Positions 781 through 13,745 of a stretch of DNA of 13,986 nucleotides are shown here, piece by piece (position 1 is the stretch's first letter; each line of letters starts with the position of its first letter). The stretch is from the IMG/VR virus record IMGVR_UViG_2609459823_000005. The stretch is one strand, 5' to 3'. A model generated the notes under the pieces. The model saw only the letters and a list, made by a program, of their open reading frames with translations, ran no database searches and was not told where the DNA came from. The DNA is from a virus (lineage: Duplodnaviria > Heunggongvirae > Uroviricota > Caudoviricetes). Position numbers and translations under genes: made by a program.

Positions 781-1064
781 TTGAATTTTTTTCATAAAAA
801 AAGCATATATCCATTTGATTTGGCATTTGTTTTTTTCGTGTTTCTTATGAGTCATTTTCGCGTTTTTTTTTGAAACGGCTCAATAATGCCAAATCAACGT
901 ATAAGAAATAAACGGAACAGAACGCCTCACTTTAATGGTTTGAGATTTTTCTTGTTTCCGTATTGGTTTAAGCAGAAAATGTGTTTCTTAACATTTAGTG
1001 CTTGGTAATGATTCTCAGTTGCACTACCGAGTGCCCTATTAATGAAATCGTTGGACGTTACGCA

Positions 1065-1103
1065 CAGCACACTGGTAGCTAATGAGCCAGGGGCGGTAGC
1101 GTG
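1065..1103 (+). promoter_or_regulatory. JUMPStart 39-bp element containing the ops site (GGCGGTAGCGTG at 1092-1103); RfaH-dependent antitermination signal
   Basis: The sequence cagcacactggtagctaatgagccaggggcggtagcgtg matches the conserved JUMPStart element found upstream of enterobacterial polysaccharide operons, and its 3' end matches the ops consensus GGCGGTAGnnTG exactly. It sits about 90 bp upstream of the rmlB start. Confidence 0.85.
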
Positions 1104-1192
1104 CCTTGTTTTTGAATCAATGCCCTGGCTTGAATTTTGCATGTCGGTGCCACAGTAACAACTCGCAAACGCAAAGTAGATGGAATAAACTC

Positions 1193-2281
1193 GTGAAAAT
1201 ATTGGTCACAGGTGGGGCAGGTTTTATTGGATCTGCTGTCGTCCGTAATATCATTAAGAATACTCAGGATTCTGTAGTTAATGTTGATAAATTAACCTAT
1301 GCGGGCAATCTTGAATCGCTGGTTGAAATCGAAAACAGCGCCCGTTATGCTTTTGAATGTGCAGACATTTGTGATGCTGAGGCGATGTCGCGTATTTTCG
1401 CCACTCACCAGCCTGATGCTGTTATGCATCTGGCTGCAGAAAGCCATGTAGATCGCTCGATCACCGGCCCTGCTGCTTTTATTGAGACAAATATCGTGGG
1501 CACCTATGTGCTGCTTGAAGCCGCACGTAAATACTGGTCTCAACTTGATGAAACAAGTAAAGCCGCGTTCCGCTTTCATCATATTTCAACGGACGAAGTC
1601 TACGGCGATTTGCCGCATCCTGATGAAGTCCCCGCTGGCACCGCCTTGCCGCTGTTTACCGAGAAAACCCCTTATTCTCCCAGCAGTCCGTATTCCTCAT
1701 CGAAAGCGTCAAGTGACCATTTAGTACGTGCATGGCGCCGTACTTACGGCTTGCCGACCCTGGTGACGAATTGCTCAAATAACTATGGCCCATACCATTT
1801 CCCTGAAAAACTTATTCCGCTGATCATTCTTAATGCATTAGCTGGTAAGCCGTTACCGGTGTATGGCAATGGCGAGCAAATTCGCGACTGGCTATTTGTT
1901 GAAGATCATGCACGCGCCTTATATAAGGTCGTCACTGAGGGGGTTGCGGGTGAGACTTACAATATCGGTGGTCACAATGAGCGTAAGAATATTGAAGTCG
2001 TAAATACTATTTGTACTATTCTGGACGAAATCATTACTGCGAAACCTAATAATATTAGTAGCTTTGCAGAATTAATTACTTATGTCACCGACCGTCCGGG
2101 CCATGATCTGCGTTACGCCATTGATGCGAGCAAAATAAAAGATGAACTGGGCTGGGTACCGCAGGAGACTTTTGAATCAGGTATCCGCAAAACGGTTGAA
2201 TGGTATTTGACTAACCAGGACTGGTGGCAGCGTGTGATGGATGGATCATATGCTGGTGAACGCCTGGGGCTCGCAGAATAA
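1193..2281 (+). CDS. rmlB: dTDP-glucose 4,6-dehydratase
   Basis: Preferred start is the in-frame GTG at 1193, giving [14 protein letters not shown] (Rossmann GxxGxxG) and a length of ~362 aa. The catalytic YSSSK (YxxxK) and other blocks ([21 protein letters not shown]) closely resemble E. coli RfbB as recalled. The track's ATG at 1106 is rejected because that extension overlaps JUMPStart/ops. Confidence 0.92.
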
Positions 2282-2296
2282 AATCGTAAGGACGGA

Positions 2297-3172
2297 ATGA
2301 TGAAAGGTATTGTATTAGCTGGCGGTTCTGGAACTCGTCTTTATCCGATTACTCAGGGTGTGTCAAAACAGTTATTGCCTGTTTATGACAAGCCGATGGT
2401 TTTTTACCCAATATCAGTTCTAATGTTGGCAGGTATTCGTGACATTTTGATTATCACGACGCCGGAAGATATGGCCGCGTTTCAACGCCTGTTGGGAGAC
2501 GGCTCTCAATTTGGTATTCGCCTTTCCTATACTGTCCAACCTTCGCCGGACGGTTTAGCGCAGGCATTTATTCTGGGTGAAGAGTTCATTAATAATGAAC
2601 CTTGTGCTCTGGTGCTGGGCGACAATATCTATTTTGGTCAGAGTTTTGGTAAAAAACTCGAGGTTGCCTCTCAGTTGACCCAAGGTGCGATGGTATTCGG
2701 TTATAAAGTACAGGATCCTGAGCGTTTTGGTGTGGTTGAATTTGATGCGAACTACAAGGCATTGTCCATTGAAGAAAAACCACAGAAGCCAAAATCCAGT
2801 TGGGCAGTAACCGGTCTCTATTTTTACGACAAAAACGTTGTGGAAATGGCGAAGCAAGTCAAACCATCTGCTCGCGGTGAACTCGAAATTACGACACTTA
2901 ACCAAATGTATCTTGAACGCGGTGAGCTTCAGGTAGAGTTGCTCGGACGTGGTTTCGCATGGCTTGACACCGGCACACATGACAGTCTGGTTGAGGCTTC
3001 ACAGTTTATTCATACCATTGAAAAAAGGCAGGGTATGAAAGTCGCTTGCCTTGAAGAGATTGCGTTTCGCAATGGATGGATCGGCAGAGAACAACTTTTA
3101 GCGCAGGCAAAACTGTTCAGCAAAAATGATTATGGTAAGTATCTAAAAGTATTGGCTGGAGAACATGAATGA
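2297..3172 (+). CDS. rmlA: glucose-1-phosphate thymidylyltransferase
   Basis: The N-terminus [16 protein letters not shown](x)[13 protein letters not shown] is the nucleotidyltransferase signature, and the ~290-aa protein closely resembles E. coli RfbA. There are tandem ATGs at 2297 and 2300; the RBS aaggacgg (2288-2295) favours 2300. The stop overlaps the rmlC start (ATGA at 3169-3172). Confidence 0.92.
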
Positions 3173-3705
3173 ACGTCATTGACACTAAAATAAGCGATGT
3201 GAAGATTATTGAGCCAAAAGTCTTTGGTGATGAACGAGGGTTCTTTTTAGAAACATTTGAAAAAAAGAGATATCAAACCCTTTTGAATATCGATATGGAT
3301 TTTGTACAGGATAACCACTCACGTTCCAGCAAAGGCGTACTTCGTGGGCTTCACTTTCAGCGCAATAATCCTCAGGGGAAACTTGTTCGAGTAGTTCGTG
3401 GCGAAGTGTTTGATGTTGCTGTTGATATTCGTAAAGACTCACCAACCTATGGGGTGTGGGAAGGTGTAATTTTGTCAGAAACGAATAAAAAGCAATTCTG
3501 GATCCCACCGGGACTTGCTCATGGTTTCCTGGTACTCTCGGATATTGCTGATTTCGAATATAAATGTACCGACTATTATGATAGCAGTAGTGAAGGCTGT
3601 TTAATCTGGAATGATGAGCAAGTTGGGATTGCATGGCCAGTAATAGACGCTGAGATTAAACTTTCAGCAAAAGATGCTGTTGGTAAGTTACTGCGTGACC
3701 TATAA
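3169..3705 (+). CDS. rmlC: dTDP-4-dehydrorhamnose 3,5-epimerase family protein (RmlC-like cupin)
   Basis: The 178-aa protein has [11 protein letters not shown], the catalytic His in VLRGLHFQ, the GKLVR lysine, [10 protein letters not shown] and a Tyr in FEYK, which is the RmlC fold signature. Whether it performs a full 3,5-epimerisation or a single epimerisation cannot be told from sequence. Confidence 0.8.
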
Positions 3706-3716
3706 GTTTTACTAAC

Positions 3717-3746
3717 AGGCGTAGATATTTTCTACGCCTATTTTTT
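3717..3746 (+). terminator. Intrinsic-terminator-like hairpin between rmlC and wzm
   Basis: A perfect 9-bp stem aggcgtaga (3717-3725) / tctacgcct (3731-3739) with a 5-nt loop is followed by a T-run at 3741-3746. A TATAAT hexamer at 3754-3759 lies just before the wzm start. Confidence 0.55.
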
Positions 3747-3760
3747 GAGGCGCTATAATA

Positions 3761-4540
3761 GTGTTTAATAGTTTCATTCAAGGCCTGATAAATTATCGTG
3801 TTGTACTAAAACAATTAATAAGACAACAAGTAACGCTCAGGTATCGCAGAACAATGTTCGGTTTTTTATGGACCCTGCTTAATCCTCTTCTGAATATGGC
3901 AGTAATAGCGACTGTCTTTTCAATCGTAATGAAATTTCAGATAAGAGACTACGCCATTTTTCTCTTCTCTGCAGTTATTCCTTGGACTATGTTTTCAAAT
4001 ATCATTTCACAATGTTCTAATTCATTGATAGCAAATGAAAATCTATTTAAAAAAATATACTTACCAAAACAGATATTTATAACCGCTAGCGCAGTATCTG
4101 TTTTTATTGATTCGCTTCTGAGTACTATCTGTTTATTCATCATTGCATATTTCTTTGGCGCAAAATTAAGTTTGGCATTGATGTTTCTTCCAGTTTCATT
4201 TGCGATCTTATTTATATTCGCTTATGGTTTGGGTCTGATTTTTTCTGTAGTTTCTGTTTTTTTGCGCGACATGCAGTATCTGATCGGTGTGATTTTGCAA
4301 GCTCTATATTTTATGACCCCTATCATATATCCCGTTGATGCTGTTCCGGAACAGTACAAATGGGTTTTTGCATGGAATCCTATGTACTATTTTGTTGATT
4401 TATTTAGGGATCCAATCTACAACAATCAATTCCCTCCAGCTTATTCATTACAGCTTTGTGCGCTGACTGCCATTATTTCACTTTTGGTTGGTTTGTATGT
4501 ATTTAAAGTAAATGACAAAAAAATTATCTTCAGGTTGTAG
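3761..4540 (+). CDS. wzm: O-antigen/polysaccharide ABC transporter permease (ABC-2 family)
   Basis: The N-terminal motif LRYRRTMFGFLWTLLNPLL is typical of Wzm/KpsM, and the rest of the 259-aa protein is strongly hydrophobic with multiple predicted TM segments. Start is assigned to GTG 3761 with GAGG at 3747-3750; the ATG at 3854 would remove the conserved motif. The 3' end overlaps the wzt reading frame. Confidence 0.82.
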   Translation: MFNSFIQGLINYRVVLKQLIRQQVTLRYRRTMFGFLWTLLNPLLNMAVIATVFSIVMKFQIRDYAIFLFSAVIPWTMFSNIISQCSNSLIANENLFKKIYLPKQIFITASAVSVFIDSLLSTICLFIIAYFFGAKLSLALMFLPVSFAILFIFAYGLGLIFSVVSVFLRDMQYLIGVILQALYFMTPIIYPVDAVPEQYKWVFAWNPMYYFVDLFRDPIYNNQFPPAYSLQLCALTAIISLLVGLYVFKVNDKKIIFRL

Positions 4541-4541
4541 T

Positions 4542-5291
4542 ATGGAATCTAAAATTATTTTTAAAAATGTCTCTCTCGTATTTGATGAACATCAGCAACG
4601 AGGTCTGACGTTCAAAGAGTTATTTGCACGCACTCTCTCCGGTCGGAATAACGCTATAAAGGCGAATAAGAGAAAAGCTTTGGATTCAATAAGTATCGAG
4701 ATAAACCATGGAGAGCGAATCGGTATTGTCGGAAGCAATGGGGCAGGGAAAAGTACGTTCCTAAAAACACTTTGTCGTATTTATGAGCCAACCTCTGGTG
4801 AAATAAGCATATCAGGTAATATTGCACCGTTACTTGAGATTGGGGCTGGATTTAATCCAGAACTAAGCGGAAGAGAAAATATATATTTGAATGGTGCAAT
4901 TCTGGGCCATAGTATTTCTGAGCTTAAAAGTTTGGAAGCAGAAATTATTTCATTTTCAGAATTAAGTGAATATATTGATACACCTGTCAAATATTATTCA
5001 ACGGGCATGTATCTTAAATTAGCATTTTCAATTGCGACGGCAATCAAGCCTGATATTTTAGTTTTAGATGAACTGTTTGCTGGCGGTGACGCGGAATTTG
5101 TTGCTAAAGCTAAAAAAAGAATGGAACATTTCATCGCGGAATCAAGCATTATGTTTTTTGTATCTCATCAATTAGATTTGCTGCAGGAATTATGTACCCG
5201 CGTAATATGGATCGACCATGGTAAATTAATTGCTGATGGTGTACCAGACAAGGTAATTGAAGCATATTTGAATAAAGGTCATCATGATTAA
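4542..5291 (+). CDS. wzt: O-antigen/polysaccharide ABC transporter ATP-binding protein, short form without a C-terminal carbohydrate-binding domain
   Basis: Walker A GIVGSNGAGKST, ABC signature YSTGMYLKL, Walker B ILVLDELFAGGD and an H-loop (FFVSHQ) are all present. The track ORF begins at ATG 4512, but ATG 4542 (MESKIIFKNVSL) immediately follows the wzm stop and gives a typical N-terminus. At ~250 aa the protein is a nucleotide-binding domain only. Confidence 0.85.
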   Translation: MESKIIFKNVSLVFDEHQQRGLTFKELFARTLSGRNNAIKANKRKALDSISIEINHGERIGIVGSNGAGKSTFLKTLCRIYEPTSGEISISGNIAPLLEIGAGFNPELSGRENIYLNGAILGHSISELKSLEAEIISFSELSEYIDTPVKYYSTGMYLKLAFSIATAIKPDILVLDELFAGGDAEFVAKAKKRMEHFIAESSIMFFVSHQLDLLQELCTRVIWIDHGKLIADGVPDKVIEAYLNKGHHD

Positions 5292-6045
5292 TATTATAAT
5301 AGTCAGCCATCAAAATTTAGCTGACATTGATAAAATTCTCACAGAACTTGCGGGTGAAAATGATTATTATACTATTTATGTTCGTGACAATGTTGCTGAT
5401 GAGAATTTGAAGCGCCTTTGTTCTGATTATAACGTCTCATATTGTTCTGGTATTCGCCGAGAAGGCTTTGCCCTTAATAATAATATTGCTGCCGAAAAAG
5501 TATTACACTCATGTGAAATAGCTGATGATGATTATTTCCTGTTTATGAATCCTGATGCATATATTATTCGCGACGAGCTGATCAAACTCTCAACTATTTT
5601 GAGCGAAAAAAAATACGATATGTTCACTGTTGATCTGTATAGTAATGATGAATATACAATAAGAGATCCTTCCATTCGATATTTTCCAACGCTAAAAACA
5701 TTTCTATCTTCTTTTTTATTTGATACTAACAAAAGTATTATTAACAGGGATGCCATTCATCAAGATTTCGACCTGGATTGGTGTGCTAGCTCATTCTTTG
5801 GCGTTAAAGTTGGTTTGTTTAAAAGACTTAATGGCTTTGATTCCCGATTCTTTATGTATTGTGAAGATGTGGATATCTGTTACAGGGCTAAAAAATTAGG
5901 AGCCAAGCTTAGTTATATTGCAAATGTAAAAGCAATACACTACACTCAGAAAAATAGTAAAAAGATGCTCACTAAAAATTTTTATTGGCACGTTAAAAGT
6001 GCCATATTGTTTTTATGGAAAAAGCATACCCTGTCAAAAGGTTAA
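5284..6045 (+). CDS. GT2-family glycosyltransferase, WbbL-like dTDP-rhamnosyltransferase (candidate Rha to GlcNAc-PP-undecaprenol adaptor transferase)
   Basis: The 253-aa protein shares blocks with the E. coli WbbL rhamnosyltransferase as recalled from memory: IIIVSH, VRDN, DDDYFLFMNPDAY, DWCASSF, NGFD, FFMYCEDVDICYR, AIHY and WHVKS. The start overlaps the wzt stop by 8 bp. Confidence 0.6.
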   Translation: MINIIIVSHQNLADIDKILTELAGENDYYTIYVRDNVADENLKRLCSDYNVSYCSGIRREGFALNNNIAAEKVLHSCEIADDDYFLFMNPDAYIIRDELIKLSTILSEKKYDMFTVDLYSNDEYTIRDPSIRYFPTLKTFLSSFLFDTNKSIINRDAIHQDFDLDWCASSFFGVKVGLFKRLNGFDSRFFMYCEDVDICYRAKKLGAKLSYIANVKAIHYTQKNSKKMLTKNFYWHVKSAILFLWKKHTLSKG

Positions 6046-6050
6046 GATAA

Positions 6051-6944
6051 ATGTATTCTGTTGTGATGGGATTCCGCGAAAACTATAAACATTATGGGTA
6101 CACTACTCTTTTTTCTTTATTAACAAATAATAAAAACTCTTTTTTTTCAATCTATCTCCTTTCAGATAATCTGGATTTTGCATTTTTTAAAAAACTGGAG
6201 GATGTTTTTGCTTGCAAAATCATCCCTATTTCTATTTCGGCTGATCATATTGAAAATGTAAATTGTGGCTATCTTTCCTTTGGGACACTAATCCGCTTAT
6301 TAATCGGTGATTATCTTCCTGCTAATGTCGAAAAGGTTCTATACCTTGATGCTGATTTGATAATTGATGGCGATATTCATGAACTTCTTAATTATGAGTT
6401 AGGTTCACAGTATGCGGCAGTCGTAAGATCGAGTGCTCCTTATAAGCATCTCAAGGACATTAGGATAACATCCGAGCAGTACTTTAATGCGGGGGTGATA
6501 CTTTTTAATATGGAGATGTGTAGAAAAGATGATATTTTCATAAAAAGCCTTGATTTGTTAAAACGGAATAATTTTAAATATTTAGATCAAGATGCACTTA
6601 ATATTGCAATGGTAAACAATGTAAAATATGTTGATTCTAAATGGAATTTCGACTCATTTAGAGCAAAAACAATCTTACTTGATAGGAGTTATGCAAATAA
6701 ATACCCTGCAATAGCAATTTATCATTTTACAGGGCGTGACAAACCATGGTTTAAACATTGCATCAACCAGTATCAGAGTATTTATCTTCGTTATTTCGCT
6801 GAAATTCTAGGCTATGATGTTATCAATAATAAAAATAAATTTCAGTATTTTAAATTTAAACTGATTAAATTCTTATTCAGTAACTTTGTAACCCGTAAAA
6901 TTATTTACCATTTAAGAAACTATATTCGGACTAATATTCACTAA
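6051..6944 (+). CDS. GT8-family retaining glycosyltransferase (RfaJ/RfaI/LgtC-like; alpha-hexosyltransferase)
   Basis: GT8 hallmarks are present: the DxD motif in LYLDADLIIDGD, FNAGVILFN, YLDQDALN and the C-terminal HFTGRDKPW (H-x-x-G-x-x-KPW). Length is 297 aa and the donor sugar cannot be assigned from sequence. Confidence 0.75.
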   Translation: MYSVVMGFRENYKHYGYTTLFSLLTNNKNSFFSIYLLSDNLDFAFFKKLEDVFACKIIPISISADHIENVNCGYLSFGTLIRLLIGDYLPANVEKVLYLDADLIIDGDIHELLNYELGSQYAAVVRSSAPYKHLKDIRITSEQYFNAGVILFNMEMCRKDDIFIKSLDLLKRNNFKYLDQDALNIAMVNNVKYVDSKWNFDSFRAKTILLDRSYANKYPAIAIYHFTGRDKPWFKHCINQYQSIYLRYFAEILGYDVINNKNKFQYFKFKLIKFLFSNFVTRKIIYHLRNYIRTNIH

Positions 6945-6953
6945 GGACATTTT

Positions 6954-8333
6954 GTGGAGACTATACAAATAGCCACTGGAGTAAGTCGTAACTTCTTTGA
7001 CCCATTGAGTGTCATGCTTACTTCCTTGCTTGAAAATAATCAATCACATAAAATCAATTTTCATGTTTTGCACAGTGATTTTACGGATGATGATGAAGAA
7101 AAATTTAGCCTTTTGTTTACTAAATATGAAAACCTGGGGCTTAAATTCATCAAGTTAGATGAATCTAAATTAGAAGGGCTTCCCCTTCTGCAACATTTCA
7201 AGATCTCAACGTATTTTCGAATTCTGGCGCCAGCTGTTTTAAGTGAATATGATAAACTCCTTTATCTCGATGCCGACATTATTGTTGACAATGATATTCT
7301 GGAATTATGGCAGACCGATGTCACCAACTATACCCTCGCAGCAGTTCGTGAAGAGAGTATTGTCGCGTTAGATAAACGTTTGAGAATGCCTGCCAATTAT
7401 AAGTATTTCAATGCTGGTGTTGTTGTATTAAATAGTAAAAAAATTCGAGAAGAAAATAAGTTCGGTCCTGTTATCGATTATCTAAAAGAAAATATCAATG
7501 AGATCCTTTATCTTGATCAGGATGCTTTAAATGCTATTCTCTACGATGAATGGTTAGAAATAGACGAGAAATGGAATTATCATAATACCTTTATCCTGAA
7601 AAAAAATAATAACAAAGAGCATATCTTATTAGATAAACCAGTTATTATTCATTATACTGGTCCAGTCAAACCATGGGATGCGGAAAGTTCACATATATTT
7701 AAAAGCCGCTATTGGCATTACAAGAAAATATTAACAGGGAGTGTCGATGAAATTAAAGCTGGTTTTAACATACATAGTACGCTTGCTAAAAGAATAATAA
7801 AATATGCATATAGAGTTATTCTTTCCAATTATTATTTAAGAAAGCTGATTCTTAAAACAAATACATCATTAAAGCAGAGTGAGCATTTTGCGAAATATTA
7901 TTTTAAGTTTAAGGAACGTTTTGCTCCTGCACCTCAGATAATGTCGTCATTCGAAGCGAAGTTAGTTCAAGTTGATGTACCACTTCTAGAATCAACCATG
8001 GATTATGGTTTTTTCAGTATAAGGGAGTTCTTGAACTATATACAAATTTCTGGATATGTTTTCAAAAAAGAGTTTTCTGATAGAAATACTAATAAATATT
8101 TTGTCTTGAGAAACAGTGTCGACCCTAATTTGCTATATTGTTTTAAACTTAACAGTCATGACCATGTTTGGATTAATGATATATATAATGATGGTAATGA
8201 CTATTCAAAAAGTGGGTTCTTTAATTTCATCGGCAAAAGAGAGCTTAAAAGTGGAAGGTATGAAGTTGGATTAATCGTCCAAAATTCAAAAGGTGTACAT
8301 TATAAAATGACTGACACTACAGTAATTATTTGA
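6954..8333 (+). CDS. GT8-family glycosyltransferase with an extra ~190-aa C-terminal extension (two-domain protein)
   Basis: The N-terminal ~260 aa carry the GT8 motifs LYLDADIIVDND, FNAGVVVLN, YLDQDALN and HYTGPVKPW. The C-terminal portion has no GT8 similarity and contains a block (ISGYVF ... LKSGRYEV) that is also seen in the next protein. Start is GTG 6954 with RBS AAGGA at 6943-6947. Confidence 0.75.
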   Translation: METIQIATGVSRNFFDPLSVMLTSLLENNQSHKINFHVLHSDFTDDDEEKFSLLFTKYENLGLKFIKLDESKLEGLPLLQHFKISTYFRILAPAVLSEYDKLLYLDADIIVDNDILELWQTDVTNYTLAAVREESIVALDKRLRMPANYKYFNAGVVVLNSKKIREENKFGPVIDYLKENINEILYLDQDALNAILYDEWLEIDEKWNYHNTFILKKNNNKEHILLDKPVIIHYTGPVKPWDAESSHIFKSRYWHYKKILTGSVDEIKAGFNIHSTLAKRIIKYAYRVILSNYYLRKLILKTNTSLKQSEHFAKYYFKFKERFAPAPQIMSSFEAKLVQVDVPLLESTMDYGFFSIREFLNYIQISGYVFKKEFSDRNTNKYFVLRNSVDPNLLYCFKLNSHDHVWINDIYNDGNDYSKSGFFNFIGKRELKSGRYEVGLIVQNSKGVHYKMTDTTVII

Positions 8334-8343
8334 CGAGGAATCC

Positions 8344-9564
8344 ATGGATATTAAAATTTATTCGTCTTTTTATAAAAAATACTTCATTTATAAAAGCGAC
8401 ATTGTAGAACCTGTTTTTGTTGGTGCGGCCGAAAAGAATAATGATTTAGGCATCATTGGTGATGATACTGGCGATAATATTAGCGATAAAAACGGCACGT
8501 TCAATGAATTAACTTTAATTTATTGGGTCTGGAAAAATACTACAAATCAAGATTATGTAGGCTTCTGTCATTATAGAAGATATTTTATAAATAGAAGCAT
8601 CAGTAAATTTGAAAAAGCATTGCATCTTCTGATTCCACGCGATAAAGAGCGTAGAGAGCGTAAATTATTACGTTTGTTACAGCAGTTTGATAAAAATTGT
8701 GAATCCGAATTGAAAGGATTTGATATAGCGTTACCTAAGCCTATTGTTATGAATCGTACTTTGCGTGAACAATATGCTGATTATCATGATGGCGCGCATT
8801 ATGAGGAAATGGGTAAGGTTATTCGAGAATTACGTCCTGACATGTGGCCTGCTTACGAAGATGCGTCAAATCGAAATACTTTCTTCATCGCTAATATGTT
8901 CATTTTTAGCCGCAAGTATTTTGATCAATTTTGCGAGTTTGCCTTTCCGGTTCTTTTTGAACTAGAGAAAAGGTTAGAAGTGCCGGATGATATGTATCAA
9001 AAACGTATTTTTGGATACTTAGGTGAGCGGTTGGTAACAATCTTTGTAAATTATTTATATCAACAAAAGAATGTTAAATTCAAATATTTTGATCTATTAA
9101 ATACTGATGTTATTTTTTCAAATTACAAATCGTATCTAACCGAAAAAAAATTAATAAGCAGTAAAAATAAAAACTACGTCACTTTTGGTGCTGTTGATAA
9201 TCTAATCAAAATGTCAAACAATTTTTACTGCATGAATGGTTGGGTTATAATTAAAGATCGCGAATCCTATAATGTTACGGTTCAAATTGAGTTATATAGT
9301 GATGAAAACACTATTATGCTTAATAGCGAAAGACAGGATCGGCCTGATGTAACCCGGCACTTTATCAATGTTCATGATGGGTACGTTAATTACGATAATT
9401 GCGGCTATTACACTAGTTTTAAATGTGATGAGATTAAAAGTGGTGAATATAAAATTAAGTTTCATGCATTTGATAAAATAGAGAAAACAACTTCAATTTT
9501 TTATGTTTATGACTGTTTTTTAAAGAAACATAAAAATGAAGTTGAGCTTGTGAGGTTACCATGA
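8344..9564 (+). CDS. DUF4422-type putative glycosyltransferase (WbbI/WbbM-N-like, candidate galactofuranosyltransferase) with a C-terminal extension
   Basis: The motifs ELTLIYWVWKN, VGFCHYRRYF and GYLGERLVTIF match my recollection of the DUF4422 family, which includes known Galf-transferases; this is not verified by a profile search. The C-terminal ~110 aa (NGWVI ... IKSGEYKI) resemble the C-terminus of the preceding protein. RBS GAGGA at 8335-8339; the stop overlaps the glf start (ATGA). Confidence 0.6.
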   Translation: MDIKIYSSFYKKYFIYKSDIVEPVFVGAAEKNNDLGIIGDDTGDNISDKNGTFNELTLIYWVWKNTTNQDYVGFCHYRRYFINRSISKFEKALHLLIPRDKERRERKLLRLLQQFDKNCESELKGFDIALPKPIVMNRTLREQYADYHDGAHYEEMGKVIRELRPDMWPAYEDASNRNTFFIANMFIFSRKYFDQFCEFAFPVLFELEKRLEVPDDMYQKRIFGYLGERLVTIFVNYLYQQKNVKFKYFDLLNTDVIFSNYKSYLTEKKLISSKNKNYVTFGAVDNLIKMSNNFYCMNGWVIIKDRESYNVTVQIELYSDENTIMLNSERQDRPDVTRHFINVHDGYVNYDNCGYYTSFKCDEIKSGEYKIKFHAFDKIEKTTSIFYVYDCFLKKHKNEVELVRLP

Positions 9565-10730
9565 TTAGTTATGATTACATTATTGTAGGCTGCGGTCTTT
9601 CTGGTATTGTTCTGGCAAATAATATTGCTGAGAAATTAAATAAAAAAGTGCTTATTATTGAGAAGCGCGATCATATCGGAGGAAACTGTTACGATTACTA
9701 TGATGAACATGGTGTCCTTGTACATAAATATGGTCCGCATATTTTCCATACAAATTATAAAGATGTCTATGACTACCTTGATCAATTCACTGAATGGTAT
9801 GTTTATCAGTTCCAGGCACGAACACTGATTGATGGTAAAAAAACATTTTTGCCCTTCAACCTGAACACGATGAAGGATATTCTTGACGAGCATTTATATG
9901 ACAAGATATCTAAAAAACTCATCGAAGTTTATGGTTATGATAAAACCGTACCTATTTTCGAGTTAAAAAAATCAGAGGATGAAACCATCCAATGGTTGGT
10001 TGACTATATTTACGATAAAGTCTATGTGAACTATATCGCTAAACAATGGGACATGAAACCCGAAGACCTCGACAAGAGTGTGCTTGAACGTGTTCCCGTA
10101 TATATTTCTCGCGATAATCGATATTTCAAAGACAAATATCAAGTTATGCCACGAGACGGTTATACGGTTATGTTCAACCGGATGTTGGCAAACAAAAACA
10201 TACATGTTCTGTTGAATGCTAATGCAGACGATTTTGTCACGCTGACCGATAAGCATGAAGTTCACTTCATGGGCAAGCCATTTGAAGGCAAGTTGATTTA
10301 CACCGGTCAGATTGATCATCTTTTCAATTATAAATTTGGCGAGTTACCTTATCGTTCCTTGCGCTTTGATTTTGTTAATTACAAAAAAGAGTTCTTCCAG
10401 GAAGTGGCTATGGTTAGCTACCCAAATAATTATGATTTCACTCGTATTACGGAAAGTAAGCATTTGACCGGGCAGGATTGCAAAACGACCACTGTTGTTT
10501 ATGAATATCCCCAGAATTATGATCGTAATGATCCTATCAAAGATGTACCTTATTATCCTGTGCCAAGAGCCGATAACCATGAACTTTATGCAAAATATTC
10601 AGAGCTTGCTGGTAAGTATAAATCTTTGATACTGGTTGGTCGTTTAGCTCAATACAAGTACTACAACATGGATCAGATGATCAAAGTTGCCCTTGATACA
10701 TTTAAAGAAATTCAAGCTGGAGAAAAGTAA
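9561..10730 (+). CDS. glf: UDP-galactopyranose mutase family flavoprotein (NDP-hexopyranose mutase)
   Basis: The N-terminal FAD-binding YDYIIVGCGLSGIVLAN ... KKVLIIEKRDHIGGNCY and HKYGPHIFHTN closely parallel E. coli K-12 Glf as recalled, with conserved blocks throughout the 389 aa. A dTDP-fucopyranose mutase (Fcf2-like) cannot be excluded from sequence alone. Confidence 0.85.
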   Translation: MISYDYIIVGCGLSGIVLANNIAEKLNKKVLIIEKRDHIGGNCYDYYDEHGVLVHKYGPHIFHTNYKDVYDYLDQFTEWYVYQFQARTLIDGKKTFLPFNLNTMKDILDEHLYDKISKKLIEVYGYDKTVPIFELKKSEDETIQWLVDYIYDKVYVNYIAKQWDMKPEDLDKSVLERVPVYISRDNRYFKDKYQVMPRDGYTVMFNRMLANKNIHVLLNANADDFVTLTDKHEVHFMGKPFEGKLIYTGQIDHLFNYKFGELPYRSLRFDFVNYKKEFFQEVAMVSYPNNYDFTRITESKHLTGQDCKTTTVVYEYPQNYDRNDPIKDVPYYPVPRADNHELYAKYSELAGKYKSLILVGRLAQYKYYNMDQMIKVALDTFKEIQAGEK

Positions 10731-11662
10731 TGAAGACTATTTTAATTGTTGGTGGTTCTGGCTTCATGGGTGCGAATTTTACTGAATACTTTGTTGCGAA
10801 AGGCTACAAGGTTATTAGCTTCAGTAATTCACCAACCCGTATCCAGCATGAAAATGTGGTAAATGTTTGCGGTGATAGCCGTGATGCCGAAGCTATTAAT
10901 GAAATTTTTGTTAATCACAAAATTGATTTGGTTGTTTTTACGTTGACGAGTTTTTGGGTGGTTGATGGGGTGAGCTCCTATCAAGATTTGACCGCCATTA
11001 ACCTGACTGCGTTTATCGATGTACTGAATATCATGAAGCGTCACAATGTTAATGAAGTGATTTACATCTCTTCTGGTGGCTCTATCTATGGAGAGTCCGA
11101 TAAGCCGATTCCGGAAGATTCACCGCTCTGCCCGGTCAGTTTTTATGGCTGGATCAAAGAAGCGGCAGAAAGCTATCTTAAATATGAAGCCCGTATTAAT
11201 CCCCATTTGCGCTATCTTGTATTTCGTCCTTCCAATGTTTACGGAAAATATCAGCAGCTCAACCGCATCATTGGTGTAGCGCTTAAAAATACACATTTGG
11301 ACATCCCAATGAATATTTATGGTGGTGCGGATACGAAGAAAGACTATATTTATATCGATGATTTCTGTGAGATCATCTTTAATATCTTGAATAAAAATGT
11401 CTGGAACGAAACGTACAATATTGGTTCTGGTGTCGGAACCAGCATTCGAGAAATTCTGGATCTTGCTCAGGAAGTTGTGAATAAGCCACTTGCTGTTGAG
11501 TATGGAAAACAGAAAGAGGGTGATATCAGTTATAGCGTATTAGATGTTGAGAAAGTTAAGGCTGTAACTGGTAAGCAAAGCTTCACCAACGTCAAAGACG
11601 GCATGCGTAAAATGTATCCGTACGTTGTCGAAGAACTGGCACGTCTGGCAGCGAAGGCCTAA
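10730..11662 (+). CDS. NAD(P)-dependent epimerase/dehydratase (extended SDR) family protein; candidate nucleotide-sugar 4-reductase or 4-epimerase
   Basis: Rossmann motif IVGGSGFMGANF at the N-terminus and catalytic YGWIK (YxxxK) preceded by ISSGGS. Length is 310 aa and the start overlaps the glf stop (TAATG). Precise activity is not assignable by eye. Confidence 0.7.
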   Translation: MKTILIVGGSGFMGANFTEYFVAKGYKVISFSNSPTRIQHENVVNVCGDSRDAEAINEIFVNHKIDLVVFTLTSFWVVDGVSSYQDLTAINLTAFIDVLNIMKRHNVNEVIYISSGGSIYGESDKPIPEDSPLCPVSFYGWIKEAAESYLKYEARINPHLRYLVFRPSNVYGKYQQLNRIIGVALKNTHLDIPMNIYGGADTKKDYIYIDDFCEIIFNILNKNVWNETYNIGSGVGTSIREILDLAQEVVNKPLAVEYGKQKEGDISYSVLDVEKVKAVTGKQSFTNVKDGMRKMYPYVVEELARLAAKA

Positions 11663-11862
11663 TAGCTTATCCTGCTTCTTGAGCAAGAGATGATTGTAAT
11701 GGTTTTGTTAACACTTTTTTGCTCAATAGTGGGCTAGTCCTTTAAAACTTTTTTAGGTTAACATGTTAGTCACGTATCCCGACGGCGAATGCGGCGTCGG
11801 GAATCCACACCTGACAGGAGTTTTGCATGCCTAAGCAACAAATCGGCGTTGTTGCTTAGGCC

Positions 11863-13233
11863 GTGATGGGGCGCAACCTGGCGCTTAACATCGAAAGCCG
11901 TGGCTATACCGTTTCCGTTTTCAACCGCTCCCGCGATAAGACCGAAGAAGTGATTGCCGAGAACCCCGGCAAGAAGCTGGTTCCGTATTATACCGTGAAA
12001 GAGTTTGTTGAATCCTTAGAAACTCCCCGTCGCATCCTGTTAATGGTGAAAGCGGGCGCTGGCACAGATGCTGCTATTGACTCCCTGAAACCCTATCTGG
12101 AAAAAGGCGACATCATTATTGATGGCGGTAACACCTTCTTCCAGGACACCATTCGTCGTAACCGCGAACTGTCTGCTGAGGGCTTTAACTTTATCGGTAC
12201 CGGTGTGTCCGGTGGTGAAGAGGGCGCACTGAAAGGCCCATCCATCATGCCTGGCGGTCAGAAGGATGCCTATGAACTGGTCGCACCGATCCTGACCAAA
12301 ATTGCAGCCGTTGCCGAAGATGGCGAGCCCTGTGTGACCTATATCGGTGCTGACGGTGCGGGCCATTACGTTAAAATGGTTCACAACGGTATCGAATATG
12401 GCGACATGCAGTTGATTTCAGAAGCCTACTCTCTGCTGAAAGGCGGTCTTAACCTGTCTAACGAAGAGCTGGCCACCACTTTTAGCGAGTGGAATAAAGG
12501 CGAGCTGAGCAGCTACCTGATCGACATTACCAAGGACATCTTCACTAAAAAAGATGAAGAGGGTAACTATCTGGTCGATGTGATTCTCGATGAAGCGGCC
12601 AACAAAGGTACGGGTAAATGGACCAGCCAAAGCTCGCTGGATCTCGGCGAACCGCTCTCCCTGATCACCGAATCCGTATTCGCACGCTATATCTCGTCGC
12701 TGAAAGAGCAGCGCGTTGCCGCATCTAAAGTTCTGAGCGGTCCGCAGGCCCAGCCTGCTGGCGATAAAGTGCAGTTTATCGAGAAAGTCCGTCGCGCATT
12801 GTATCTCGGTAAAATCGTCTCTTATGCCCAGGGTTTCTCTCAGTTGCGTGCTGCGTCTGACGAATACAACTGGGATCTGAACTATGGCGAAATCGCGAAA
12901 ATTTTCCGCGCTGGCTGCATCATTCGTGCACAGTTCCTGCAGAAAATTACCGATGCATACGCTGAAACACCGGCAATTGCTAACCTGCTGTTGGCACCTT
13001 ACTTTAAGAAAATTGCCGATGAGTATCAGCAGGCTTTGCGTGATGTTGTAGCCTATGCCGTACAAAATGGTATTCCGGTACCGACTTTTGCCGCTGCGGT
13101 TGCCTATTACGATAGCTACCGTGCTGCGGTACTGCCGGCAAACCTGATTCAGGCTCAGCGTGATTACTTTGGCGCACATACTTATAAACGTACTGATAAA
13201 GAAGGTGTATTCCATACGGAATGGCTGGATTAA
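11863..13233 (+). CDS. gnd: 6-phosphogluconate dehydrogenase (decarboxylating), N-terminal region disrupted
   Basis: The 456-aa ORF matches E. coli Gnd over essentially its whole length ([17 protein letters not shown] ... GVFHTEWLD). The conventional start is ATG 11827, preceded by RBS AGGAG (11816-11820), and would encode MPKQQIGVVA before an in-frame TAG at 11857-11859. The intact ORF therefore restarts only at GTG 11863 / ATG 11866 and lacks the first strand of the NADP-binding fold. Confidence 0.8.
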
Positions 13234-13364: not shown

Positions 13365-13745
13365 TTACTTACGGCCCGTAAACGGGCTGCCCGGATAGGG
13401 AATCGATAACTGCTCTCCCATTTTATCCTCTTCAAGCTGGTGCTTTATGTAATCCTGTATCTTCGCCGTGTTCTTACCCATCGTATCGACGTAATACCCT
13501 CTGCACCAGAACTCCCTGTTCCTGTATTTGAATTTCAAATCACCAAACTGCTCGTAAAGCATCAGACTGCTTTTCCCTTTCAGATATCCCATAAAGCCTG
13601 ATACGCTCATTTTGGGCGGGATCTCCACAAGCATATGGATATGATCTGCACAGCATTCAGCTTCCAGAATCCGTACACTTTTCCACTCACACAGCTTTCT
13701 CAAAATACTGCCTGTTGCTCTACGCTTCTCTCTGTAGAACACCTG
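13365..13745 (-). pseudogene. tnpA: IS200/IS605-family (IS200-like) transposase tnpA, 5'-truncated by IS1 insertion
   Basis: The minus-strand ORF encodes FYREKRRATGSILRKLCEWKSVRILEAECCADHIHMLVEIPPK ... YPGSPFTGRK, which matches IS200 TnpA as recalled, including the HuH motif (HIHML). About 27 N-terminal codons are missing; the match stops at 13745, where IS1 sequence begins. Confidence 0.85.

Follow-up and report, generated by a model that had tools for sequence, protein, structure and literature searches.

A short-form Wzt in an apparent galactan-like O-antigen locus of Escherichia coli and its predicted cap-independent export

We analysed a 13,986-nucleotide (nt) stretch of DNA (the window; IMG/VR virus record IMGVR_UViG_2609459823_000005) that encodes Wzt, the ATPase of an ABC-type O-antigen exporter. 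The cluster around wzt is best explained as a galactan-like, ABC-transporter-dependent O-antigen locus acquired horizontally by Escherichia coli. Wzt consists of a nucleotide-binding domain (NBD) only, and we consider it likely that export is cap-independent and coupled to synthesis, as in Klebsiella pneumoniae O2a. Two export classes have been described: in one (O9a, O12), a Wzt bearing a carbohydrate-binding domain (CBD) recognizes a terminal cap, and in the other, of the O2a type, the chain is capless and export is coupled to elongation (PMC7685785). In their sequence-level features, this Wzt and its locus agree with the O2a-type class and not with the CBD/cap class. Since Wzt has no CBD and the locus no capping enzyme, export is predicted to proceed without the need of a terminal modification. 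Ungated export would follow from the published model (PMC7685785), in which case chain length would be set by the balance of polymerase and transporter activities.

Wzt and the absence of a terminator

The gene under study is as follows.

4542–5291, + strand: wzt, NBD-only exporter ATPase of 249 amino acids (aa), from ATG at 4542 to TAA at 5291

The stop codon of wzm (TAG, 4538–4540) ends 2 nt before the ATG of wzt, as seen in both the list of open reading frames (ORFs) and the sequence, and the 3′ end of wzt overlaps by 8 nt with the next gene, which starts at 5284. Since that gene leaves no space behind wzt, a frameshifted or lost CBD remnant is excluded. An alternative in-frame ATG at 4512 would give a protein of 259 aa, with 10 additional residues encoded within wzm; it is used by one Logan gene call (P0001). 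Gene calls for Wzt on four E. coli contigs (L005–L008) and for the Cronobacter, Franconibacter and Ewingella orthologues are 246–249 aa long.

All five motifs of the ATPase were located: Walker A (GSNGAGKS, residues 64–71), the Q-loop (LLEIG, 97–101), the signature motif (YSTGM, 152–156), Walker B (ILVLDE, 172–177) and the H-loop (VSH, 207–209). Pfam family PF00005 matches at 4e-19. At a Pfam threshold of E ≤ 10, the other matches are weak P-loop families and one chance N-terminal match (DUF5070, E 0.08); Wzt_C was not found.

Comparison with solved structures places the end of the protein at the end of the NBD. Residues 47–248 of Wzt align to residues 36–238 of the 242-aa Aquifex Wzt NBD chain (PDB 6amx; 2e-50), and residues 47–243 cover only residues 38–234 of the 404-aa full-length, CBD-bearing Aquifex chain (8dku; 4e-49). 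By these alignments, the end of Wzt coincides with that of the solved Wzt NBDs. The best solved relative is itself CBD-less, the galactan exporter Wzt/RfbE of Mycobacterium tuberculosis (9qfx; 1e-53), followed by TagH/TarH at about 1e-43, and all remaining solved ABC proteins match at 1e-26 or weaker. The top NCBIfam model is also that of galactan export Wzt/RfbE (NF050108); with 217 bits against a cutoff of 400 bits, our protein is not an equivalog.

The short form is the rule among relatives of this protein. Its nearest homologues (the best 120 from a search of 5.8 billion proteins) are all 194–295 aa long and carry only P-loop NTPase families of Pfam, namely PF00005 and, in 4 of the 120, also PF13304 or PF13476. 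The leading homologues score between E 1e-157 and 1e-88, so the ORF is not a chance one. Judged by its sequence, Wzt is an intact but ordinary short-form O-antigen export ATPase.

We then consider the second half of the argument, the missing cap. Pfam and/or NCBIfam scans of 14 window proteins found no methyltransferase, kinase or Kdo-transferase family, and likewise no GT99. The families present are IS3 transposase, RmlB, RmlA, RmlC, Wzm, Wzt, glycosyltransferase (GT) family GT2, two GT8, DUF4422/GT111, Glf, a short-chain dehydrogenase/reductase (SDR), Gnd and IS200-family transposase. An orthologous 11-gene locus occupies the chromosomal galF–gnd–his position in Cronobacter turicensis, Franconibacter helveticus and Ewingella americana; from galF to gnd, it has the same 11 genes in the same order and no extra gene, and the precomputed Pfam lists of these three complete loci contain no methyltransferase, kinase, Kdo-transferase or GT99. 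The identical content in three genera indicates that the gene set is complete and that no terminator was cut off by the ends of the window, which is our strongest evidence. Also, the genes of the operon abut or overlap, leaving no space for another gene on the coding strand. The earlier note had described a Wzt of about 250 aa with Walker A/B and signature motifs, lacking a C-terminal carbohydrate-binding module, in a locus without a WbdD-like or Kdo-transferase terminator; the first point is confirmed at the same coordinates, and the Pfam result and the orthologous loci bear out the other two.

Operon layout and the adaptor sugar

The window holds one operon of the RfaH type on the + strand, running from rmlB through the SDR gene and then gnd. 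Its features other than wzt are the following.

25–732, + strand: IS3-family transposase fragment, upstream, at the place expected for galF
1092–1103, + strand: ops/JUMPStart element GGCGGTAGCGTG, about 90 nt upstream of rmlB
1193–2281, + strand: rmlB, dTDP-glucose 4,6-dehydratase, probable GTG start at 1193 (NCBIfam NF007490, 2e-210)
2297–3172, + strand: rmlA, glucose-1-phosphate thymidylyltransferase (TIGR01207, 7e-154, above cutoff)
3169–3705, + strand: rmlC, dTDP-4-dehydrorhamnose 3,5-epimerase (TIGR01221, 1e-78, above cutoff)
3761–4540, + strand: wzm, ABC-2 permease (PF01061, 4e-20; galactan export permease NF050109, 4e-21, below cutoff)
5284–6045, + strand: WbbL-like GT2, 253 aa (BLASTP against K-12 WbbL; weak match to rhamnosyltransferase model TIGR01556)
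6051–6944, + strand: GT8a, 297 aa, retaining alpha-hexosyltransferase (PF01501, 1e-35)
6954–8333, + strand: GT8b-ext, 459 aa, with a GT8 domain (residues 6–243 in Pfam), a linker and an Ig-like module
8344–9564, + strand: GT111-ext, 406 aa, with a DUF4422/GT111 domain (residues 1–240; PF14393, 4e-61) and an Ig-like module (residues 280–404)
9561–10730, + strand: glf-type nucleotide-sugar pyranose/furanose mutase (TIGR00031, 2e-136, above cutoff)
10730–11662, + strand: extended-SDR epimerase/reductase, 310 aa (PF01370, 3e-36)
11827–13233, + strand: gnd, with a premature TAG at codon 11 (11857–11859) and an ORF restart at GTG 11863
13365–13742, − strand: IS200/IS605-family TnpA, downstream of gnd

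A search for the 8-base ops core GGCGGTAG gave one match in the window, and 22 of 200 shuffled sequences gave at least one; four further bases of the element, CGTG, were read directly from the sequence. We take GGCGGTAGCGTG to be the canonical ops consensus, which presumably acts through RfaH by antitermination. The element implies RfaH-dependent transcription of the whole operon, although an insertion sequence (IS) replaces the native galF promoter region. The span given for rmlB corresponds to a gene call of 362 aa on L005, an identical contig of E. coli. Wzm is 84% identical to its Cronobacter orthologue. On one Cronobacter turicensis contig (Logan SRR28287080, positions 9160–10000), the interval from rmlC to wzt has two small called ORFs, both on the minus strand, and no called wzm; wzm may be disrupted in that strain, with wzt and the rest intact.

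The dTDP-6-deoxy-L-hexose pathway is the sole obvious candidate source of a cap sugar in the locus, and its use thus bears directly on the mode of export. WbbL adds L-rhamnose to undecaprenyl diphosphate-linked GlcNAc (GlcNAc-PP-Und), at the reducing end and not at the growing end, and in mycobacteria, WbbL forms the GlcNAc-Rha linker upon which the galactan is assembled. In BLASTP, the GT2 of the window is similar over its full length to E. coli K-12 WbbL (reconstructed from two fragments split by IS5), with 40% identity over residues 1–251 of 264 and E 1.4e-63. Since the pathway is paired with a full-length WbbL homologue, it is more simply read as supplying a reducing-end adaptor. The GT2 is most likely a dTDP-6-deoxy-L-hexose:GlcNAc-PP-Und transferase that would make an adaptor rather than a cap; its donor may be dTDP-6-deoxy-L-talose instead of dTDP-rhamnose.

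No RmlD was found among the window proteins, and the SDR scores below both the rmlD (TIGR01214) and the galE cutoff. With 24% identity to K-12 RfbD, the SDR was rejected as an ordinary RmlD. It is probably a replacement 4-reductase that finishes the dTDP-6-deoxy-L-hexose (L-rhamnose or 6-deoxy-L-talose). A single comparison suggests this role: a distant metagenomic locus (L091) has a true RmlD-family gene and lacks an SDR of the window type. A GalE-like 4-epimerase is the alternative for this protein.

A cap that went unrecognized is the rival explanation that survives best, although we regard it as unlikely. Here GT8a or the 6-deoxy-L-hexose transferase would add a non-repeat residue at the non-reducing end and so stop growth with no need of a Wzt CBD, as galactan II/O2c caps O2a galactan I, or the terminator would be encoded by an unlinked gene. 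The gene count gives this some substance, since there are four GT genes and a disaccharide repeat needs two plus the adaptor enzymes; also, GT8a is less WbbM-like than GT8b-ext, and an entire dTDP-sugar pathway is retained for possibly one residue. However, the sole GT with a rhamnosyltransferase signature is the full-length WbbL homologue, which would act on the GlcNAc primer, and the window shares its lack of methyltransferase, kinase and GT99 with the three orthologous complete loci. Moreover, without a CBD such a cap would not gate export, and the main prediction of the earlier note, export that is not gated by a terminal residue, would still stand. As for GT8a, it may add an adaptor or side-branch hexose.

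A predicted split polymerase with Ig-like modules

The DUF4422 domain of GT111-ext matches the N-terminal galactofuranose (Galf)-transferase domain of Klebsiella O2a WbbM (PDB 6u4b) at 3e-32 in phmmer. For the AlphaFold2 (AF2) model of GT111-ext (pLDDT 88), the same structure is the sole significant Foldseek match (3e-17), with an identity to WbbM that is low (29% in the Foldseek alignment). GT8b-ext matches the C-terminal GT8 domain of WbbM at 1.4e-18 over 213 residues; GT8a gives a partial match to WbbM at 5e-11 and matches LgtC in the PDB at 3e-17. The function of WbbM and of GT111 enzymes has been described (PMC12269835). The glf-type mutase is 39% identical to K-12 Glf. The earlier note had likened the system to Klebsiella O2a, a likeness that is strengthened by the glf gene, by the GT111 and GT8 matches to WbbM, and by the WbbL homologue, which would account for the dTDP-sugar pathway.

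The arrangement recurs outside the window. Ewingella and two distant metagenomic loci, L090 and L091, each have within one locus a glf gene and a GT8-ext gene upstream of that for GT111-ext; the two GT genes of L090 are separated by an IS110-family transposase gene. A short Wzt is encoded along with the GT pair, of 246 aa in Ewingella and of 241 aa in L091, a locus that looks Gram-positive. On these grounds we predict a WbbM-type polymerase split over two polypeptides, with GT111-ext as the beta-Galf half and GT8b-ext as the alpha-Gal half, the two being taken to work as one polymerase. The glf-type mutase gene is directly followed by the same SDR gene (9561–11662 in the window) both in Enterobacteriaceae and in L090 (4692–6791).

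Both halves of the putative polymerase carry additional segments.

7764–7907, + strand: GT8b-ext linker, residues 271–318, basic, aromatic and amphipathic
7944–8333, + strand: GT8b-ext Ig-like module, residues 331–459, a beta-sandwich when modelled alone (pLDDT 95)
9181–9555, + strand: GT111-ext Ig-like module, residues 280–404, a beta-sandwich within the model of pLDDT 88

The composition of the linker is suggestive of peripheral membrane binding. Profile–profile comparison with hhalign shows the two C-terminal modules to be homologous (probability 95%, E 2e-8); BLASTP of one extension against the other detects no more than a shared motif (E 0.017). The module has the motif G-W ... R-x-D-V/I ... 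D-x-S-G-F ... G-x-Y-x-I. Among 1.84 billion representative proteins, 144 relatives of the module were found, which come from many metagenomes and have 1–7 tandem copies. Among the 140 relatives checked for membrane spans (P0361–P0500), about half have a single N-terminal span and about 30 have roughly 8–12 spans; DUF6311 occurs in one of the latter, and a different relative, with a single span, is a GH25 enzyme. In Pfam scans of 22 sequences (the two extensions and 20 relatives), no family was found to cover the module, and Pfam matches of any kind occur in only three of these 20: a weak Chalcone_2, DUF6311, and GH25 with Ig-like families. A profile scan of genome contigs with the GT111-ext alignment found only relatives of the catalytic domain, in unrelated taxa and reaching residues 1–294 at most, and never covered the C-terminal module. 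The module appears to be an undescribed domain family that is used on both sides of the membrane.

A Foldseek search of the PDB with the module gave nothing significant. The nearest folds are the oligomerization domains of TarS and RmlT, with scores barely above those of generic Ig/FN3 matches. The TarS domains mediate trimerization, have been proposed to bind polymer and raise intrinsic processivity, and the RmlT subdomain mediates a dimerization that normal function in vivo requires (PMC5156392, PMC11697029). The modules most likely serve the split polymerase for assembly and/or for holding the chain, and are not a relocated Wzt CBD. A transfer of Wzt-type CBDs to the GTs as the source of the appended domains was rejected, since neither structure nor sequence gave a match.

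An export gate on the side of the polymerase would be a different matter. Here the Ig-like modules would be true carbohydrate-binding modules that replace the quality control by the Wzt CBD, measuring or holding the chain and passing it on to the transporter. The module is kept on both enzymes across distant taxa, the proteins with tandem copies of its relatives include envelope proteins, a GH25 muramidase and GT-C-like polytopic proteins, of which one has DUF6311, and the TarS domains, which have been likened to CBM48/CBM68, were proposed to bind polymer. We still think such gating improbable, even more so than a cap. A related idea, on which we would place little weight, is that the paired modules form a glycan-holding or ruler device that sets both processivity and the length of the chain in an ABC pathway without a terminator, and that they at the same time represent an unannotated domain family widespread in envelope proteins. 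If true, chain length would be controlled on the polymerase side, in a manner distinct from the WbdD/WbbB rulers and from transporter/polymerase stoichiometry. A role of the appended GT domains in setting chain length, as the earlier note had offered, is speculative, and Ig-like folds close to oligomerization and processivity domains are compatible with it.

Taken in order, the proposed pathway would start with WecA, encoded elsewhere, which would prime Und-PP-GlcNAc. The WbbL-like GT2 would add one 6-deoxy-L-hexose (L-rhamnose or 6-deoxy-L-talose) supplied by RmlB, RmlA, RmlC and the SDR, in the adaptor role that we infer for this sugar, and GT8a may contribute another hexose, as adaptor or as branch. 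The beta-Galf transferase GT111-ext and the alpha-galactopyranose (Galp) transferase GT8b-ext, together the presumed counterpart of the single bifunctional WbbM of Klebsiella O2a, would build the repeat, with Glf supplying UDP-Galf. The paired Ig-like modules and the GT8b-ext linker would assemble the enzymes at the membrane and/or hold the chain (oligomerization, processivity). Finally, Wzm and the 249-aa NBD-only Wzt would export the Und-PP-linked chain. The sugar identities in this scheme are those suggested by the enzyme families.

Origin of the locus and comparison with known systems

Proteins 100% identical to GT111-ext and GT8b-ext are named Escherichia coli (P0121, P0241). The GT8b-ext protein, taken as a marker of the locus, occurs on 21 contigs of 2 to 50 kb, most of them 10–20 kb; all for which NCBI has an assembly record come from E. 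coli. The four contigs shown agree in gene layout and carry transposase genes at their ends or close to them. A detailed comparison with one contig, L005 (38 kb), gave protein identities of 99.8–100% to the window; upstream of the locus, L005 carries an IS30-like transposase and a HigB/HigA-like pair rather than colanic acid genes. In megablast, the core (3700–11700) had no match in 5,426 complete E. coli genomes, and the whole window matched plasmid records only in its IS elements, rmlBA and gnd, with the core absent.

Proteins of the window are 57–91% identical to those of Cronobacter and Franconibacter (Wzt 78–79%), and Gnd reaches 93%. RmlB and RmlA, at about 76%, are the sugar-pathway proteins least like those of Cronobacter, and RmlC is 89% identical. 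The G+C content is 31–39% from about 3 kb to 11.5 kb (lowest, 31–36%, at 3.5–10.5 kb) and about 42–51% in the flanks. The locus looks mosaic. The rmlB–rmlA segment including the ops region (928–3079) has 89% DNA identity to a 67-kb Klebsiella pneumoniae plasmid (NZ_CP036195.1), and its G+C content is 42–47% as against about 31–36% for wzm to glf.

No named E. coli serogroup, OgN type or Cronobacter serotype with this wzm/wzt cluster was found in the literature. E. coli O52 does not fit, since its cluster carries heptose genes and the window has none; O95/O97, which contain Xulf, do not fit either.

The gnd gene starts ATG CCT AAG CAA CAA ATC GGC GTT GTT GCT TAG, where Cronobacter reads ...GGT ATG... 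at the point of the stop, and the restart at GTG 11863 leaves out the beginning of the NADP-binding glycine motif. The protein from this GTG is identical on L005, where gnd is called at 455 aa, also with a late start. This gnd is probably either a pseudogene or a redundant second copy that came in together with the locus.

Several points weigh against an O2a-like, cap-independent system at work in this host. A terminator or a glycan-binding protein may sit elsewhere in the genome, beyond the 14-kb window. The window has neither a GT4 that would correspond to WbbO, the adaptor enzyme of O2a, nor any other additional GT, and the system is therefore no copy of O2a. The adjacency of mutase and SDR fits a dTDP-6-deoxyhexofuranose pair like Fcf2/Fcf1, which act on a dTDP-6-deoxyhexose in E. 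coli O52, and the furanose of the polymer may thus not be Galf. Lastly, the IS flanks and the disrupted gnd make expression in E. coli less certain. In the extreme case, the cluster would be a silent or decaying import, and the anatomy of Wzt would then say nothing about the lipopolysaccharide of the strain. The flanking IS3- and IS200-family transposase genes, the missing galF upstream, the gnd stop and the absence from complete E. coli genomes would all suit such an import, which we nevertheless hold to be quite unlikely: all 11 biosynthetic ORFs are intact and tightly packed behind an ops element, the proteins of L005 are nearly identical to those of the window, and the presence of the GT8b-ext protein on 21 contigs, with a shared layout on the four shown, argues for maintenance.

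Cap-independent export by this short Wzt alone brings nothing new, since CBD-less Wzt proteins are common and their behaviour has been defined in Klebsiella O2a. Of more use than wzt by itself is the locus as a whole, as an apparent E. coli O-antigen genotype unmatched to any named serogroup, and the putative natural split of WbbM, with matching Ig-like modules, would be convenient for asking how assembly and processivity of the polymerase set chain length without a terminator. We regard the split WbbM-like polymerase with its matched modules, and the WbbL-type adaptor, as modest variants.

Klebsiella pneumoniae O2a (D-galactan I: Wzm/Wzt, WbbM, Glf, WbbN, WbbO) resembles the window in its ABC pathway, its CBD-less Wzt and its lack of a terminator (PMC12269835, PMC7685785), as well as in having Glf and a polymerase composed of GT111 Galf-transferase and GT8 Galp-transferase domains. 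It differs in that the polymerase domains of the window are on separate proteins, each with an added Ig-like module, and that a WbbL-like GT2, a second GT8 and the dTDP-6-deoxy-L-hexose pathway stand in place of WbbO- and WbbN-type enzymes. E. coli O9a/O8 and Klebsiella O12 share the Wzm/Wzt family and the Und-PP-GlcNAc-primed cytoplasmic polymerization; however, they have a C-terminal Wzt CBD of about 150 aa and a WbdD or WbbB terminator, and the window has neither. The C-terminal Ig-like domains of Staphylococcus aureus TarS and Listeria monocytogenes RmlT have only 3–9% sequence identity to the modules of the window; those of TarS are in tandem, whereas each protein of the window has one module, and the enzymes that carry them belong to different GT families.

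The galactan Wzm/Wzt of M. tuberculosis (Rv3783/Rv3781; PDB 9qfx) shares the NBD-only Wzt and the logic of the pathway, in which a GlcNAc primer receives a rhamnose-type residue from WbbL and then a Galf-containing polymer that is exported by an ABC transporter. The polymerases are unrelated (GlfT1/GlfT2 of GT2 in M. tuberculosis, GT111 and GT8 in the window), and the lipid carrier and the fate of the product also differ. The locus described here would thus join a mycobacterium-like GlcNAc/6-deoxyhexose adaptor logic to an O2a-like polymerase.

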